DNA of 51,631 nt, taken from contig JAHFLN010000003.1 in NCBI GenBank assembly GCA_023244835.1, forward strand, positions 1 through 51,631, in the 5' to 3' direction. The position numbers were made by a program, and so were the translations under genes. The notes under the pieces are model-generated. The model saw only the letters and a program-made list of their open reading frames with translations, made no database searches and was not told where the DNA came from. Origin of the DNA: Candidatus Harrisonbacteria bacterium (GTDB taxonomy: Bacteria > Patescibacteriota > Minisyncoccia > UBA6257 > UBA11618). This document shows positions 990 through 50,373 of this stretch, one piece after another (the first letter of the stretch is position 1; each line of letters begins with the position of its first letter).

Positions 990-1556
990 ATGTCGAGAAT
1001 TCTCGATAGCGGTATGGGGAGGATCGAGGCTCTTATGGGGAATCCCGCGCGTGACCAATGCCCCGGGGAAATTCTGGATATGCAAGCGCTCGTATCCGTG
1101 CGATATTATTCGTTCGACGGGCTGCTCCACGAGGGGCGGATCCTCGTCGATCGGCGACTCGCGCTGGATATCTCCACGGTCTTCGCGGCGATCGAGCGGG
1201 AGCGGTTTCCGGTTATGAGCGCGATTCCGGTTGCGGATGCGCGTATCGGCTGGAGCGACGACGTGTCGATGGCCCTGAATAACAGTTCGGGGTTCAACTA
1301 CCGTCCGATCACGGGAGGCGGAACGAAGGTGTCGGCGCATGCCCTGGGGCAGGCGATTGACATCAATCCGCTCTTGAATCCGTATGTGAGCCCTGCAGGG
1401 GTCGTGAGTCCTCCGGGCGCGGTGCGGGATGTCTCGAGGCCCGGAACGATTCTTGAGAATTCGTTCCTCGTGAAGCTGTTCGATGAATTCGGGTGGGAAT
1501 GGGGCGGGCGGTGGACGGACCGCGTCGACTGGCACCACTTCGAGAAGAGGTTGTAG
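990..1556 (+). CDS. M15-family Zn metallopeptidase (D-Ala-D-Ala carboxypeptidase-like)
   Basis: NSSGFNYR, SAHALGQAIDINP, WGGRW and DWHHFE motifs; SD GGAGGTG at 978-984 before ATG 990. Confidence 0.88.
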   Translation: MSRILDSGMGRIEALMGNPARDQCPGEILDMQALVSVRYYSFDGLLHEGRILVDRRLALDISTVFAAIERERFPVMSAIPVADARIGWSDDVSMALNNSSGFNYRPITGGGTKVSAHALGQAIDINPLLNPYVSPAGVVSPPGAVRDVSRPGTILENSFLVKLFDEFGWEWGGRWTDRVDWHHFEKRL

Positions 1557-1733: not shown

Positions 1734-4010
1734 ATGGCAATCAACAAACCCTCCCAACATCGCTCCCCGAAGGCGATTTTTTCCTTCATTCGGAAGCGCG
1801 ACGGCCGTGTTGTCGCGTTCGACCAGTCGCGCATAACGAACGCCGTCCTGAAAGCGCTTATAGAAAGCGGGGAAGGGGGCATGCCAGAGGCGGAAAAGGT
1901 GTCGGACGCCGTCATTTCGGCAATGCTCAGGCGCAGGACGCCCGAAAGCGTGCCGGGTATCGAGGACATCCAGGACGTGGTGGAGACCCAGCTCATCCTT
2001 CTCGATTACGCGAAGACGGCGAAGTCCTACATCCTCTATCGCTATGACCGTATGAAGCTCCGCGAAGAGGCGCGCGAGGTTCCCGAGCACGTGAAGAAGC
2101 TCGTGAAGGAGTCAAAGCAGTATTTTAGGAACCCGCTTTCAGAATTCATCTATTACCGCACCTATTCGCGGTGGATGGAGAGCGAGGGGCGGCGCGAGAC
2201 ATGGATCGAGACGGTAGACCGCTATATGTCCTTCATGCGCGAGCGGATGGAAGATGCCATAACGCCGCGAGAATACGCCGATATTCGCGAAGGGATACTG
2301 CGCCAGGAATCGATGCCCTCGATGCGGCTCCTCTGGGCCGCGGGCAAGGCGGCGCGCGCGAACAACGCGGCGGCGTTCAACTGCTCATTCGTGGCCCCCA
2401 CGAAGCTCGAGGACTTTGCGGAGATCATGTTCCTTGCCATGTCCGGCTGCGGGGTGGGATATTCGGTCGAAAGCCAGAGCGTGCACCAGTTGCCGCAGAT
2501 CAAGCGGCAAACGGGCAAGTTCTCGCCGACGCACGTGGTCGCTGACAGTAAGGAGGGCTGGTGCGACGCGGTAACGGCCGGCTTGAAATCGTGGTTTTCC
2601 GGCAAGGATATTAAGTTCGATTTCTCGCGCGTACGACCCCAAGGGGCGCGGTTGAACACTATGGGCGGCAAGGCGTCCGGCCCCGCGCCGCTCCAGTCGC
2701 TTTTGGAAATGATACGCAACAAGGTGCTCGCGAAACAGAATCGGCGCCTGTCGACGATCGACGTGCACGACGTGATCTGCAAGATTGGGGAAGTGGTTGT
2801 GGTAGGCGGCGTACGCCGCACCGCGCTTATTTCCTTGTCCGACCTAAACGACGAGGATCTTCGTCACGCGAAGGACGGCGCCTTCTATATAAAGGAGCCC
2901 CAGCGCGCGATGGCGAACAATTCGGCAGTCTATCTCGAGAAGCCGAGCGCCGTGGAATTTATGGAGGAGTGGCTCGCGCTCGCTAGGAGCGGTAGTGGAG
3001 AGCGGGGAATATTCAACCGCGGCGGCCTCCAGCACCAGATGCCCGCGCGTCGTTTCGCCGCGTCGAAGAAGCATCTCGCGATGACGGGTACGAACCCGTG
3101 CGGCGAGATAACCTTACGCTCGAAAGAATTCTGCAACTTGTCTGAGGTGGTGTGCCGCAGGGAGGATACGGAGGAGTCTCTTATCAGGAAGATCCGCCTT
3201 GCGACATTACTCGGCACCTATCAGTGCATGCTTACGGACTATAAGTATATCGGTAAGGAATGGAAGAAGAACTGCGACGAGGAGCGCCTTTTAGGGGTGT
3301 CGCTTACGGGTCAGTGGGACTGCCCGGCCGTGCGGAGTCCGAAGGTTCTTTCGTATCTGCGCGAGGAGGCGATCCGGGTGAACGAGAAGTACGCGAAGAA
3401 GTTCGGTATCAATGCGTCGGCCTCGATCACGTGCGTGAAGCCCTCAGGAAACGTGTCTCAGCTTGTGGACGCCTCAAGCGGCATGCACCCGCGCCACGCC
3501 CCGCACTATATTCGCCGCGTGCGCATCGGCTCGAACGACAGCTTATTCCAGATGATGAAGGACCAGAAGGTCAACTATCATGCGGAAGTGGGGCAGTCGG
3601 TCGACAACGCATCGGTCTTCGTGCTCGACTTCCCGGTGCACGCGCCGAAAAGTTCGATTTACCGGAATGATCAAAGCGCCTTGGAACAGCTCGAATACTG
3701 GAAGATGGTCAAGGAGAACTACACCGAGCACAACCCGTCGGTAACGATCTCGGTCGGTGAGAACGAGTGGCTCATCGCGGCCGACTGGCTGTATAAGAAC
3801 TGGGATATGATCGGCGGACTCTCGTTCCTCCCTCGCGACAACCACGTTTACACCTTGGCGCCGTACGAGGGAATCGACGAGGCGAAGTATAAGGAGCTCG
3901 CGGGACAATTCCCGAACATAGACTTCTCGCAGATCGTGCGCTACGAGCGCGACGACCAAACGCAGGGCTCGAAGGAAGCGGCCTGCGTGGCGGGCGTCTG
4001 CGAGATATAG
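1734..4010 (+). CDS. nrdJ: Class II (adenosylcobalamin-dependent) ribonucleotide reductase with N-terminal ATP cone
   Basis: ATP cone (IRKRDGRVVAFD), FNCS, GGVRRTA, TNPCGEI, TCVKPSG and a C-terminal ACVAGVC cysteine pair; TACTAT at 1722-1727 favours a leaderless ATG at 1734. Confidence 0.9.
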   Translation: MAINKPSQHRSPKAIFSFIRKRDGRVVAFDQSRITNAVLKALIESGEGGMPEAEKVSDAVISAMLRRRTPESVPGIEDIQDVVETQLILLDYAKTAKSYILYRYDRMKLREEAREVPEHVKKLVKESKQYFRNPLSEFIYYRTYSRWMESEGRRETWIETVDRYMSFMRERMEDAITPREYADIREGILRQESMPSMRLLWAAGKAARANNAAAFNCSFVAPTKLEDFAEIMFLAMSGCGVGYSVESQSVHQLPQIKRQTGKFSPTHVVADSKEGWCDAVTAGLKSWFSGKDIKFDFSRVRPQGARLNTMGGKASGPAPLQSLLEMIRNKVLAKQNRRLSTIDVHDVICKIGEVVVVGGVRRTALISLSDLNDEDLRHAKDGAFYIKEPQRAMANNSAVYLEKPSAVEFMEEWLALARSGSGERGIFNRGGLQHQMPARRFAASKKHLAMTGTNPCGEITLRSKEFCNLSEVVCRREDTEESLIRKIRLATLLGTYQCMLTDYKYIGKEWKKNCDEERLLGVSLTGQWDCPAVRSPKVLSYLREEAIRVNEKYAKKFGINASASITCVKPSGNVSQLVDASSGMHPRHAPHYIRRVRIGSNDSLFQMMKDQKVNYHAEVGQSVDNASVFVLDFPVHAPKSSIYRNDQSALEQLEYWKMVKENYTEHNPSVTISVGENEWLIAADWLYKNWDMIGGLSFLPRDNHVYTLAPYEGIDEAKYKELAGQFPNIDFSQIVRYERDDQTQGSKEAACVAGVCEI

Positions 4011-13857: not shown

Positions 13858-14876
13858 CAAAAACATTCACGCTTCATGTTCATGGGATGCACTGTAATTC
13901 ATGCGTTCTTGTGACCGAGCGCGAGCTGCGGAAGCATCCAAAAATATCCAGGGTACAATCAAGCCTTAAAACCCATTCGGTTGAAATCCAAGGTGATTTC
14001 GGAGATGAGTCGTTGGGCGCGATAGCCGAAGAGTTGACGGATGTGGTTTCGGGGTATGGCTATTCGCTTGCCATCGAGCGGCAGATGAGAAAGAAGAAAT
14101 GGGAGGATTTCAAAGTGGCGATTCCGCTCGCGATCGGATTCATCGCGGTATTCGTGTTATTGCAGAAAATAGGCATAGTGAATCTGGTGAGCGCATCCCG
14201 CGTGACCTACGGCACCGCATTCGCGGTAGGTATTATCGCCTCGCTTTCGACGTGTATGGCGGTCGTTGGGGGCTTAGTGCTCTCGATGTCGGCAACATTC
14301 GCGAAAGAGGGGGACGCGGTGCGTCCGCAGCTCTTATTCCATGGCGGAAGGCTACTGTCTTTTTTCATTCTTGGGGGCGTTCTCGGGGCGCTCGGCAAAG
14401 CGTTAACGCTCGCCCCAATCACGATGTTTGCCATAAATATTCTGATCGGGGCAGTGATGCTGATTCTTGGCATTAATCTGCTCGATGTATTCCACGGAGC
14501 TAAGCGGTTCCAATTCACGACGCCAAAATTCATTTCGCGGCATGCGTTCGGCGTTTCGGAGCTGAATCATACGCTCACGCCGTTTTTGGTCGGCATCGCG
14601 ACATTCTTCTTGCCGTGCGGTTTCACGCAATCGATGCAATTATATACGCTTACAACAGGAGGTTTTGTAAGCGGAGGGCTTACTATGCTCGCATTCGCTG
14701 TAGGAACATTACCCGTGCTTGCTCTGATTAGCTTTAGCTCGTTCAGTATTCATACAAAATCGCAGGCGGGCATCTTCTTCAAGACGGCGGGGCTTGTCGT
14801 GATAGCGTTCGCCATATTCAACTTGATAAATAGCGCGGCGGCCATCGGTCTCATTCCGCCTATATTCACCATATGA
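13854..14876 (+). CDS. HMA domain plus DsbD_2/TauE-like membrane protein
   Basis: [16 protein letters not shown] and FFLPCGFTQ motifs; ATGA overlaps on both sides. Confidence 0.85.
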
Positions 14877-24972: not shown

Positions 24973-26111
24973 AAGAAAACGATATTTTTGAAAAATTCGC
25001 GGCCGCAAGGCAGGCTGACCATAGGCTTCACGAGGAGGAAAAAAGCCGCATGCGCCGTCACCTGCGGGCGTTTATGACGCTTAATCCGGTAAGGGAAGCG
25101 GGCTCGGTCCGTCTTCTGTTGCGAAGGTTGAATATAACGAAACTAATTATAATCAAAGATATGGCTATTGCGCTTCTAATCGTACTGATGGTGGGAGGAG
25201 GAACGTCATTCGCGGCGCAGGACGCGCTACCGGGAGATATATTGTATCCGGTGAAAATCGGGATTAACGAGGAGGTTCATGCGGCGTTGGCCTTTTCGGC
25301 CGAGGCCGATGCGCGCTGGGAGGTAGAGCGCGCGAGCCGCAGGCTCGAGGAGGCGGAGCAGCTCGCTATGAGGAATCGACTCGATGCGCAGGCAGAGGCG
25401 GCCGTCGCGGCGAGGTTCGAGAGGCATGCCGATCGGGCGCGGGAGATTGCTTCGTCGGAAAAGATGAAGAAGAAAGGAAGCGTTGTCGCGGCGAAGTTCG
25501 ATGCGGATTTTGAGGCATCGCTGCGCGGCCATGAGAAGGTGCTCGCGGAGATCGCGGCGAAGGGTAATGTGTCGGGATCCTCGGCGCTGAATCTTGTCAC
25601 AATCGTGAGGATGAGGGGGGATAGGGCGGCCGAAGCGCGCGTCGGAGCCGAGGCCGACGTGCGCGCTGAAGCGAGGGCAAAGGAAGACGCGGAGGCGTCT
25701 CTTGAGGCCGGCACTGATACGAAAGCCGCAGCGGAAGGGAAACGTGGAGCGTTTAAGAATAAGATTGCGGAAGTCAGAGCGTTCATGGGTCATATATCAG
25801 CATCGACTGAAACGCGTGTAGAGGCTGAAGCCCGCCTCGCCGCTGCCGAAAAGCTGGCGGCAGAGGGTTCGGTGAAATTGGAGGCGGGCGCCTATGCCGA
25901 TGCGTTCGCGGCGTTCAAAGCCGCATTCGAAGCTGCGCAGGAAGCAAAAGCATTTCTTGTAACGGATACGCAATTGAAGACTGGTGTCGAAACTAATGTG
26001 CGTGAAGGTATAGATGTGGATGCCGGTATTGGCACGGGTACTGCTACGGGAAGGAAAACAAAGGGAAGTGAGGGTCTTCAGGGAGGCGTAAAGTTAAAAC
26101 TAGGTCTTTGA
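24969..26111 (+). CDS. DUF5667-domain membrane protein, putative anti-sigma factor
   Basis: ATGA overlap with the sigma gene; TM helix followed by ALPGDILYPVK and RRLEEAEQL. Confidence 0.85.
   Translation: MKENDIFEKFAAARQADHRLHEEEKSRMRRHLRAFMTLNPVREAGSVRLLLRRLNITKLIIIKDMAIALLIVLMVGGGTSFAAQDALPGDILYPVKIGINEEVHAALAFSAEADARWEVERASRRLEEAEQLAMRNRLDAQAEAAVAARFERHADRAREIASSEKMKKKGSVVAAKFDADFEASLRGHEKVLAEIAAKGNVSGSSALNLVTIVRMRGDRAAEARVGAEADVRAEARAKEDAEASLEAGTDTKAAAEGKRGAFKNKIAEVRAFMGHISASTETRVEAEARLAAAEKLAAEGSVKLEAGAYADAFAAFKAAFEAAQEAKAFLVTDTQLKTGVETNVREGIDVDAGIGTGTATGRKTKGSEGLQGGVKLKLGL
25089..25114 (+). promoter_or_regulatory. Internal ECF-type promoter within the DUF5667 gene
   Basis: GTAAG-N16-CGTCT upstream of in-frame ATG 25161. 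Confidence 0.55.
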
Positions 26112-45757: not shown

Positions 45758-48295
<2,538 letters not shown>

Positions 48296-48366
48296 AAAAA
48301 GAACCTCGATAGGCCGAAGCTCGTCGAGGTTCCAATGTTCCTTATGCGGCAGGAACGGCCGTTTCC

Positions 48367-48615
48367 TCAATGCATCGTGATTACTCGATCCCAGGTGAGC
48401 GATTGGCCGCCATGGTTACGCGTCATCGAGACGGCGCGATCATGATGGGAAAATTCAAATGATGCTTGCAAACGCTGGAGATCGAGCATCTTTTTGGCCT
48501 TGAGGCCGGGAGACGGATCGGGATCGGCGGTCACGGGCCGGAGGCCTGCGAGCCGTAGCGCGACAAATGTGATCATCTCCCGCATGCCAGTTCTGGTGCC
48601 GAGTAATACGTTCAC
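48367..48615 (-). CDS. Small hypothetical protein (82 aa)
   Basis: SD AAGGAG before GTG 48615; TTGACA-18-TACTAT promoter (48694-48665); terminator ~48295-48332. Confidence 0.5.
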   Translation of the reverse strand: MNVLLGTRTGMREMITFVALRLAGLRPVTADPDPSPGLKAKKMLDLQRLQASFEFSHHDRAVSMTRNHGGQSLTWDRVITMH

Positions 48616-48696
48616 TATCCCACTCCTTAAATCGAGGAAGAGCTGTCGTTGGCTGATCATGTATATAGTACCATAGATACTATATACTTGTCAATT

Positions 48697-49108
48697 AAAA
48701 AAGAAACCTTGGGGGTGATGTCCCCCCAAGGTGGTCGCGCAGGCGACCTATTAGCCAGATCCTGAGCTTTTTCGGGTTCAGGTCTTGTCCCTATCACGAC
48801 CGCATACCCCCGTTTCGAACGGAGGAGAGGCGGTGCGTGCGGCGCATGGTTTGCCCGCAACGCGATCCGGAGTTCCGTATGGTCGTGATCCATACGGCCT
48901 TCTGCAGTGAGGCGACTATTCGCCTCAGAGCCACGAGATGCTTGATGCTAAGGCATTCTCCGAAGCTCTCTATCGCCAGACCAAGCCTTGCCCCTTGGCG
49001 TAAAGTATGGGCTAGGCTTGCCACGCTGTCGCCGAGAAACTCTCGGCATTCCCTCTAAGCCCGCATGGGATCGGCTTTCGAGGCACATCGAATAATAACA
49101 AGATCTGC
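48697..49108 (-). ncRNA. Candidate ~400-nt structured non-coding RNA of unknown family
   Basis: Promoter TTGACA-17-TACGAT (49141-49113), at least seven hairpins, terminator 48706-48732 plus T-tract, no convincing ORF. Confidence 0.55.
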
Positions 49109-49170
49109 CTATATCGTAGTCTATTATCAATAATTTGTCAATAGGAGTCGGGCGGGGTAGTATGGGGCGT

Positions 49171-50373
49171 ATGGATAGGGGTAAAAAATCATTATATGAA
49201 GGGCTTCCCGAGACGCCGGGCGTCTATATCATGAAAAGTCGCGCAGGCGGGATTATATACGTGGGAAAAGCCTCGAACCTTCGTCGGCGCGTGTCGAGCT
49301 ATTTTACGCGCCCTCATGATAGCCGTATTGAGTCCCTCGTGCGGGAGGTCGCGCGCATCGATCATAGGGACACGGACACGGCGATCGAGGCGCTGATTCT
49401 CGAGAGCGCGCTCATCAAGCGGTATATGCCGCCTTATAATATTCGCGAAAAAGACGATAAAAGCTTTCTCTACGTCGTATTCACGAAAGAGGCGTTCCCG
49501 CGCGTGCTCCTCGTGCGCGGGAAAGATAGGGCTTCTGATGATGGGGAGGTATACGGCCCGTTCGTCGCGGCCTCAGCGCTCCGTGCCGCGCTTCGCATCT
49601 TGCGGCGCATTTTCCCGTTTTCGGATCATATAAAAGAAGGCATGAAAGGCGGAAAGCCGTGTTTCAATCACCAGATCGGCCTGTGCCCCGGCACATGCGT
49701 GAAAGCGATCGCGCGCGTCGACTATGCGAAGAATATTAAGAATCTCAAGCTTTTCTTTCGCGGAGAAAAGAAAAGGATTATCCGCTCGCTCGAGGCGGAT
49801 ATGGCGCAGTACGGCAAAGCATTGCAGTTTGAGAAGGCTGAGGCCGCGAAGCGGAAGTTATTCGCTTTGCGCCATATACAGGACACGGCCCTAATTGGTG
49901 AAAATATCGTGGAAGGGGGTAACGAGGATATGCGGATCGAAGGATATGACGTGTCGAATATCTCGGGTACGAATCCCGTAGGCGCGATGGTCGTATTTGC
50001 GGGCGGAAAGCCCGACAAGAAGGAATATCGCCTATTCAATATCAGGGGCATTATGGGGCCGGACGATACCGGTATGATGCGGGAGATGATCGAGCGGCGG
50101 CTCGATAACGCATGGCCCCTACCGCAGCTGATCCTTGTGGACGGGGGGCAAGGCCAGGCGAATGTAGCGGAGGCGGCGCTTATGGCTCGCGGCTTTGCGA
50201 TTCCCGTTGTCGGCATCGCGAAGGGCGCGGATAGGAAGGGTAATCGTTTCGTGGGTAAAATTCCTAAAGGAGTCGCCGAAAAAACGCTTATTGCCGTGCG
50301 CGATGAGGCACACCGGTTTTCCCGCGCGGCGCATATCCGCCGCCGGGGGAATGCGTTCATTCCGCGTTCATGA
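49171..50373 (+). CDS. uvrC: Excinuclease ABC subunit C (short, lacks C-terminal HhH)
   Basis: GIY-YIG (PGVY, IYVGKA), UVR, RIEGYDVSNI, DGG.GQ and RDEAHRF motifs. Confidence 0.93.
   Translation: MDRGKKSLYEGLPETPGVYIMKSRAGGIIYVGKASNLRRRVSSYFTRPHDSRIESLVREVARIDHRDTDTAIEALILESALIKRYMPPYNIREKDDKSFLYVVFTKEAFPRVLLVRGKDRASDDGEVYGPFVAASALRAALRILRRIFPFSDHIKEGMKGGKPCFNHQIGLCPGTCVKAIARVDYAKNIKNLKLFFRGEKKRIIRSLEADMAQYGKALQFEKAEAAKRKLFALRHIQDTALIGENIVEGGNEDMRIEGYDVSNISGTNPVGAMVVFAGGKPDKKEYRLFNIRGIMGPDDTGMMREMIERRLDNAWPLPQLILVDGGQGQANVAEAALMARGFAIPVVGIAKGADRKGNRFVGKIPKGVAEKTLIAVRDEAHRFSRAAHIRRRGNAFIPRS

Follow-up and report, generated by a model that had tools for sequence, protein, structure and literature searches.

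What does the 840-nucleotide (nt) gap between uvrA and uvrC encode in a genome of Candidatus Harrisonbacteria, a small bacterium from groundwater that belongs to the Parcubacteria group? The window analysed is the whole 51,631-nt stretch of contig JAHFLN010000003.1 (GenBank assembly GCA_023244835.1), which is contig C17 of the host genome (G000), a 658-kb assembly that is 97.4% complete. Two units on the minus strand are located inside the gap, between the end of uvrA (48295) and uvrC. For the unit next to uvrC a sequence-only reading had proposed a novel large structured non-coding RNA (ncRNA), and this proposal is supported by the transcription signals, the fold, the conservation, and the finding of neither an Rfam family nor a coding signal. 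The unit is probably an independently transcribed minus-strand gene for a structured ncRNA of about 407 nt that belongs to no described family. The RNA gene is real and under selection and is, as far as seen, a genus-restricted orphan, shared by two species within a single genus of Parcubacteria.

The TTGACA-17-TACGAT promoter and the strong terminator that had been claimed for this unit were both recovered in the scans at the positions listed in Table 1. The promoter agrees with the consensus at 10 of 12 positions, and the terminator stem comprises 10 base pairs (bp), seven of them GC, followed by TTCTTTTTT. Judged from the -10 box, the 5′ end of the RNA would lie at about 49106 ± 2 and the 3′ end within the U-run; the transcript would span about 49106 to about 48700 and act as a folded molecule. 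Positions 48200-49400 contain three promoter-like sites (1.0 ± 1.1 expected) and four terminator-like sites (1.2 ± 1.2 expected). The GC content of the RNA gene (0.575) resembles that of its flanks and thus gives no sign of a recent foreign origin. The gene is single-copy in G000 and contains no internal direct repeats besides one A-run. The repeat GGCATTC, which had also been pointed out, is real, but a 7-mer of this kind is expected by chance in 445 nt according to our arithmetic.

In the minus sense the RNA folds with a minimum free energy (MFE) of -185.5 kcal/mol (z -6.17), and none of 100 dinucleotide shuffles, the control suggested in the sequence-only reading, was as stable. Controls of the same length and strand from uvrA and uvrC gave z -0.28 and z -0.14, respectively, the second unit in the gap gave z -1.66, and the plus sense of the RNA stretch z -5.57. 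The predicted fold is multi-branched with a dozen or so helices, and all stems named earlier were found where they had been placed. The MFE folds of G000 and of its homologue in G003 (see below; z -4.99) both close via helix P1, in which the 5′ end is paired with about 48756-48764. Since the 3′ strand of P1 overlaps the 3′ strand of hairpin hp2, P1 and hp2 are alternative pairings. A pseudoknot is possible at hairpin Hc, between CGCCA of the loop and a UGGCG that follows directly on the 3′ side.

A BLAST search of 40 relatives found the full unit in one congener, G003, at the same position between uvrA and uvrC and with 81% identity across all 416 nt. The alignment of the two RNAs has 424 columns with 86 substitutions and 14 gap columns, corresponding to an identity of about 80%. 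Four-fold degenerate sites of protein-coding genes are far less similar between the two genomes, with identities of 0.57 in uvrC (176 sites), 0.53 in uvrA (86 sites) and 0.63 in pyk (123 sites), which shows that the RNA is under purifying selection. Both promoter hexamers are identical in G003, and the terminator is identical except for one loop base.

All 11 local hairpins form in G000 as well as in G003 when the two RNAs are folded separately, and hairpins Hb and Hh have been rewritten in sequence yet are kept. The inner stem of Hh, CCUCCGUU/AACGGGGG, is replaced by GCUCUUG/CAAGAGC in G003 with retention of pairing, which amounts to four changes on both sides when read pair by pair by eye. 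The top of the Hd stem is re-registered in G003. Among 47 hand-set pairs of the most conserved core, 39 are invariant, four changed on one side, two changed on both sides (C-G to U-A) and two are no longer paired in G003 owing to a register shift. A descriptive tally over all hairpins gave 77 identical pairs, nine one-sided and 16 double changes, and seven pairs that occur in one genome only. Pair counts projected from a MAFFT alignment were discarded, since hairpins with insertions or deletions were misaligned.

A control for the fold that does have statistical power used versions of the G000 RNA with substitutions matched in number and kind to the observed ones but placed at random. The MFE of the G003 RNA (-179.9 kcal/mol) was reached by none of 300 such random versions (-154.2 ± 7.2, best -176.5). 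In the plus sense the test was weaker, with -164.2 kcal/mol for G003 against -147.2 ± 6.5, and one of 200 random versions was as stable. The minus-sense fold of G003 is thus better than the plus-sense fold by 15.7 kcal/mol, and all four one-sided changes in the core create G.U pairs in the minus sense. Together, these two observations support the minus strand independently of promoter and terminator, on which the strand call had been based before.

Table 1. Features of the uvrA-uvrC gap. Positions refer to the window except for the short-form loci, which are numbered within the respective locus. Remarks on G003 and G001 describe the copies in these congeners.
Feature	Position	Strand	Remarks
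RNA-gene promoter	49113-49141	-	-35 box TTGACA at 49141-49136, 17-nt spacer, -10 box TACGAT at 49118-49113
Predicted ncRNA transcript, about 407 nt	48697-49106	-	ends predicted from promoter and terminator
Closing helix P1	49099-49107 with 48756-48764	-	MFE folds
Hairpin Ha (CCUC/GAGG + AAGCC/GGCUU)	49050-49085	-	conserved 11-nt loop; G003: one A-to-G change giving U.G
Hairpin Hb (GCCGAGA/UCUCGGC)	49031-49047	-	G003: 6-nt insertion and another 8-bp stem, CCGAGAGA/UCUCUCGG
Most conserved core (175-column model R1)	48860-49033	-	helices Hc, Hd, He, Hf and two closing helices
Hairpin Hc	48982-49020	-	near-invariant loop of about 14 nt (AUACUUUACGCCAA)
Hairpin Hd	48927-48969	-	three-segment stem, 10-11-nt loop; two C-G to U-A double changes
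Hairpin He (GAGGCGA/UCGCCUC)	48908-48927	-	G003: one A-U to G.U
Hairpin Hf (CCGUAUGG/CCAUACGG)	48875-48897	-	G003: one U-A to U.G; loop length differs
Hairpin Hg (GCGU.GCGG/CCGCACGC)	48835-48863	-	G003: two changes to G.U, bulge lost, hairpin kept
Hairpin Hh (ACCGC..CCUCCGUU/AACGGGGG..GCGGU)	48799-48834	-	present in both genomes
Hairpin hp2 (CCUG-AACCCGAAA..-CAGG)	48761-48782	-	G001: CCCC/GGGG instead of CCUG/CAGG
Hairpin Hj (GGUCGC/GCGACC)	48733-48748	-	directly before the terminator; G003: identical stem, different loop
Intrinsic terminator of the RNA gene	48697-48732	-	stem 48706-48732, U-run 48697-48705
Divergent uvrC promoter TTGTCA-17-TAGTAT	49135-49163	+	promoter scan
Divergent uvrC promoter with likely true start ATG 49171	49135-49173	+	start from uvrC N-termini of G001, G002 and G004
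Unit 2	48301-48694	-	promoter, 82-amino-acid open reading frame, terminator
Unit 2 promoter TTGACA-18-TACTAT	48694-48665	-	conserved in G003
Orphan small open reading frame, 82 amino acids	GTG 48615 to stop 48367	-	
Unit 2 terminator	48322-48301	-	abuts the uvrA stop
Short-form locus L025 (G002)	about 2095-2335	-	in the gap; sequence comparison
Short-form locus L026 (G001)	about 1242-1500	-	in the gap; sequence comparison

A protein-coding gene was rejected as an explanation. The two longest open reading frames (ORFs) of the stretch show no codon periodicity: substitutions are distributed 13/13/15 over the codon positions in ORF 48794-49024 and 14/14/13 in the plus-strand ORF, and both frames are broken by indels in G003. 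For contrast, the neighbouring genes have identities of 0.89-0.97 at codon positions 1 and 2 and of 0.56-0.68 at position 3. The short ORFs are therefore not protein-like, as had been stated. Codon-level conservation of ORF 48794-49024 and a match to an Rfam family had been named as observations that would speak against an ncRNA of a new kind; the former is absent, and the latter was not found at gathering score over the RNA. Searches with the 4227 models of Rfam 15 were run in gathering-score mode and in E-value mode (E <= 10). At gathering score the whole window gave no match except tRNA-Asn, and in E-value mode the RNA stretch gave unrelated junk only (E 3.9-8.4). The G003 copy matched only Xoo2 (E 0.058, on the terminator stretch) and one further model at E 7.7, and no family is common to the sub-threshold matches of the two copies.

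The absence of an RNase P, transfer-messenger RNA (tmRNA) or signal recognition particle (SRP) RNA signature was likewise borne out, by Rfam and ARAGORN. tmRNA, a partner of SmpB, has tRNA-like acceptor and T-arm ends and a tag reading frame and is encoded once per genome. The RNA resembles tmRNA in length, and one hairpin loop in G000 is T-loop-like (UUCGAAA). ARAGORN and RF00023 did not find a tmRNA in G000, though SmpB is intact (C11:17421-17828). A canonical tmRNA was found in 39 of the 41 genomes searched (G000 included), among them G003, which carries it on another contig (120 bits) in addition to the RNA. With a separate tmRNA gene coexisting in G003, the T-loop-like loop lost there, and ARAGORN and RF00023 silent, tmRNA was rejected; the tmRNA of G000 is most likely missing through an assembly gap. 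RNase P RNA is essential, has one copy and matches the bacterial type A or B model. The RNase P RNA of G000 is encoded on another contig (C30:5022-5365; full length, model positions 1-367, 62.4 bits), and the RNA locus gave no match, which excludes this assignment. As an observation in its own right, this RNase P RNA is a full bacterial type A match below the Rfam cut-off of 100, so that standard annotation would miss it. ARAGORN also reported two tRNAs in G000 that are unusual in bacteria, a tRNA-Ile with anticodon TAT (25155-25231 of its contig) and a tRNA-Gly with anticodon ACC (14310-14383 of its contig).

6S RNA forms a rod-shaped molecule of about 180 nt whose central bubble mimics an open promoter, and it is broadly conserved within a lineage. 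Like 6S and Ms1 RNAs, the RNA studied here is structured, non-coding and of the abundant-promoter kind; unlike them it is branched rather than rod-like, matches no model and is not found in all congeners. The 6S model RF00013 had no match in the G000 genome. With the long form present in only two of five genomes of the genus, 6S RNA was rejected. An SRP RNA (4.5S or large) carries a domain IV motif to which the M domain of Ffh binds, and it goes together with Ffh and FtsY. The SRP RNA model RF00169 had no match in 21 genomes and the large form RF01854 none in the one genome searched; the Ffh M domain (PF02978) was found in none of the 21 genomes, the SRP54-type GTPase domain (PF00448) not in G000, the one genome searched with it, and the FtsY domain was not found. 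SRP RNA was rejected, since it gave no match and the SRP pathway itself was not found in the genomes searched. The lack of SRP RNA and Ffh in G000 and 20 relatives agrees with the loss of ffh and ffs that has been published for Parcubacteria (PMC4508563). A miniature inverted-repeat transposable element or other repeat element, which would occur in multiple dispersed copies with terminal inverted repeats, was also rejected: there is one copy in the genome itself, and no dispersed copies occur in the genomes searched.

How widely is the RNA distributed? In G000 and G003 (gaps of 840 nt and about 900 nt) the long RNA is found together with the small ORF. G001 and G002 have gaps of about 160 nt and about 130 nt, respectively, which contain a short minus-strand unit. 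In G004 there is no gap, and in the outgroup G021, which belongs to another family, a gap of about 40 nt holds nothing. The short form consists of a divergent TTGACA promoter with the -10 box TAYTAT, a body of about 100 nt with two hairpins, and a terminator directly next to the uvrA stop; this unit could itself encode a small RNA. Its second hairpin is homologous to hp2, the only body hairpin common to long and short forms, and the closing strands CCUG...CAGG are found in three genomes. Similarity between the two forms is confined to the promoter with the first ~10 nt, hp2 and the T-run at the uvrA end. Relative to the short form, the long form thus has about 310 nt more of RNA body and a further stretch of about 470 nt that contains Hj, a terminator, the small ORF and a second promoter resembling the first. 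Either the RNA grew by accretion or it was cut down in G001 and G002 by a double deletion.

Neither some 870 sampled genomes nor the pattern scans yielded another homologue. Counting G000 itself, model R1 (the 175-nt core) matched two of 17 genomes of the family, one of 151 in the order sample and one of 151 in the class sample. BLAST of the 813-nt cassette against 401 genomes sampled from the phylum returned only four matches of 23-35 nt (E 0.002-0.007). Of the three loci that a 21-mer scan of species-representative genomes identified, one (L044) is the congener copy; the other two, in L043 (1501-1523) and L045 (1500-1522), match the RNA core exactly over 23 nt within unrelated protein-coding DNA of distant genomes. 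We judged these two to be chance matches, though they are somewhat above the rough expectation, as they have no further similarity. Metagenome contigs scanned with a two-block pattern gave three loci without further similarity, for which the same was concluded. In viral contigs, a 17-mer identified four loci and a 15-mer 90 loci, and none of the 94 loci tested had BLAST similarity. The only blastn match in 50,697 phage records was a 37-nt AT-rich one in the promoter stretch of unit 2, outside the RNA. All these searches need exact conserved words or fair similarity, and distant structural homologues could escape them.

The second unit in the gap, unit 2, lies between the RNA gene and uvrA. A 9-bp inverted repeat, TATATAGTA/TACTATATA, at 48662-48670 and 48678-48686 spans its -10 region; it is conserved in G003 with a diverged spacer and looks operator-like. 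Comparison of G000 and G003 showed that the first ~46 codons of the small ORF are conserved at the codon level with many synonymous changes; after these the sequence diverges fast, and the overall identity is 47%. The small protein has no Pfam match, found only itself among 5.8 billion clustered proteins and had no usable match in the ESM Atlas. A profile search of 1.84 billion representatives returned the protein itself, the G003 copy and one 840-amino-acid repeat protein, which we rejected as a relative because its score sums 11 weak repeats and is spurious. The AlphaFold model of the small protein is unreliable (predicted local distance difference test, pLDDT, 58.9; predicted template modelling score, pTM, 0.25). 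G000 and G003 are the only genomes in which the RNA and the small ORF occupy the uvrA-uvrC gap, and this co-inheritance makes the 82-amino-acid protein a candidate partner of the RNA.

On the other side, the RNA promoter faces uvrC. The -35 hexamers of the two divergent promoters overlap, and the promoter scan confirmed the shared position with the uvrC -35 box (TTGTCA) that had been described. RNA polymerase can probably bind only one of the two overlapping -35 boxes at once, in which case activity of the RNA promoter would keep polymerase off the uvrC promoter and hold down uvrC transcription. Because the boxes overlap, such a side effect in cis on uvrC is likely. The likely start codon ATG 49171 is located 7 nt past the uvrC -10 box, and the uvrC messenger RNA (mRNA) would therefore be leaderless. 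The uvrC gene itself (within 49135-50373) is short, coding for about 400 amino acids as in all relatives fetched, and in G004 it begins right at the uvrA stop.

Several observations weigh against an independently transcribed gene for a structured ncRNA. The long RNA is lacking in G001 and G002, which have the short form, and in G004, which has no gap, and it is therefore dispensable within the genus. For covariation, two sequences carry no statistical power: the core contains two double changes, a number reached by 110 of 500 shuffles. The 16 double changes of the tally over all hairpins are inflated, because the predicted pairs of each genome are valid by construction. Long-range helices inside P1 differ between the MFE predictions for G000 and G003. 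Three metatranscriptome runs from the same study had no reads on the 1.6 kb tested, not even on uvrA and uvrC, and are uninformative either way. The sequence itself gives no clue to a function; the argument for pairing the RNA with the small protein is co-inheritance, and that for promoter competition is the geometry of the hexamers.

Four other explanations of the locus have to be considered. The locus might matter as DNA and through transcription as such: a strong divergent promoter and terminators would insulate and throttle uvrC and stop read-through into the end of uvrA, and the transcript would be a by-product. The overlapping -35 hexamers fit this idea, as do the abutting uvrA and uvrC genes of G004 and the outgroup G021, and promoter and terminator are common to all four congeners with the locus while the body varies greatly in length and sequence. 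A by-product would not be expected to have a body that is ~80% identical when neutral sites are at 53-63%, nor helices that are kept through rewriting, and we regard this explanation as unlikely. Conservation well above neutral, together with a fold that beats 300 of 300 random-substitution controls, likewise speaks against a decaying remnant of a mobile element, a prophage piece or a dead gene with no present function. A remnant would account for the patchy occurrence within the genus, with the gap empty in G004 and G021, for the orphan status of both the RNA and the neighbouring ORF, and for P1, which connects both ends of the additional ~310 nt in the manner of terminal inverted repeats. 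The gene is single-copy, it has no match in phage or viral collections and no compositional anomaly, and its promoter and terminator are intact and conserved, which makes a remnant distinctly unlikely.

The RNA could also be a long structured 5′ leader of the small ORF, similar to an attenuator or riboswitch, with a terminator that is read through under some condition. In favour of this, it lies on the same strand immediately upstream of the ORF and is co-inherited with it, and P1 and hp2 exclude each other. Such a leader seems very improbable given a 10-bp, 7-GC terminator with U-run for which inspection revealed no obvious anti-terminator, a near-consensus promoter of the small ORF past this terminator that is conserved in G003, and no match to a riboswitch family. 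A very divergent housekeeping RNA missed by Rfam, for instance a 6S/Ms1-like RNA that binds RNA polymerase, is hardly credible. No 6S RNA was found in G000, and the RNase P RNA scoring 62 bits against a cut-off of 100 shows that this lineage diverges from Rfam models; a housekeeping RNA would however be present in all congeners instead of two of five genomes, the fold is multi-branched and not a rod with a central bubble, and tmRNA (in G003) and RNase P RNA (in G000) are encoded at other loci, with the SRP pathway not found. An independently transcribed gene for a structured ncRNA accounts best for the locus.

What kind of RNA this gene would produce can be stated only tentatively. Its promoter, Rho-independent terminator, intergenic position divergent from a neighbour and lack of a conserved ORF are those of classical sigma-70 small RNA genes. 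In contrast to classical base-pairing small RNAs it is four times longer, far more structured and without significant complementarity to adjacent mRNAs: predicted antisense pairing with the 5′ end of uvrC (z +0.95), the 5′ end of the small ORF (-0.61) and the 3′ end of uvrA (-0.77) was no better than with shuffled targets. Its size, its many helices, the invariant loops of 10-14 nt and the missing complementarity to the mRNAs of its neighbours make an RNA of the protein-binding or scaffold type more plausible than a base-pairing one, an assignment that we hold with considerable doubt.

The large "ornate" bacterial ncRNAs OLE, GOLLD, ROOL, raiA and HEARO have functions that are unknown or only recently emerging. 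Like these, the RNA is several hundred nt long, has many conserved helices, is non-coding and has its own transcription signals, although it is smaller than GOLLD, ROOL and OLE. Unlike them, it is found in two species of one genus whereas those families span many genera, and their Rfam models give no match even at E <= 10. One evolutionary scenario, speculative and rather less probable than the assignment above, is that an ancestral unit of ~100 nt, made up of promoter, hairpin and terminator and divergent from uvrC, gained ~310 nt of multi-helix RNA and a small protein gene with a copy-like promoter, giving rise to a young lineage-specific ribonucleoprotein whose promoter also controls uvrC.

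Structured RNAs of this size, about 400 nt, are seldom newly found in bacteria, and ncRNA in the Candidate Phyla Radiation (CPR) is almost unexplored. The boundaries of the present gene are clean, and the signs of selection are clear for its sequence as well as its fold. The narrow distribution and the lack of a functional clue limit the general importance of this RNA for now. The -35 box shared with a DNA-repair gene gives a directly testable cis effect. The long and short forms within one genus make up a series that could reveal how a complex RNA is assembled or taken apart. If the scenario of growth from a short unit is true, the locus would be a rare datable example of large structured RNAs arising in ultra-small CPR genomes.

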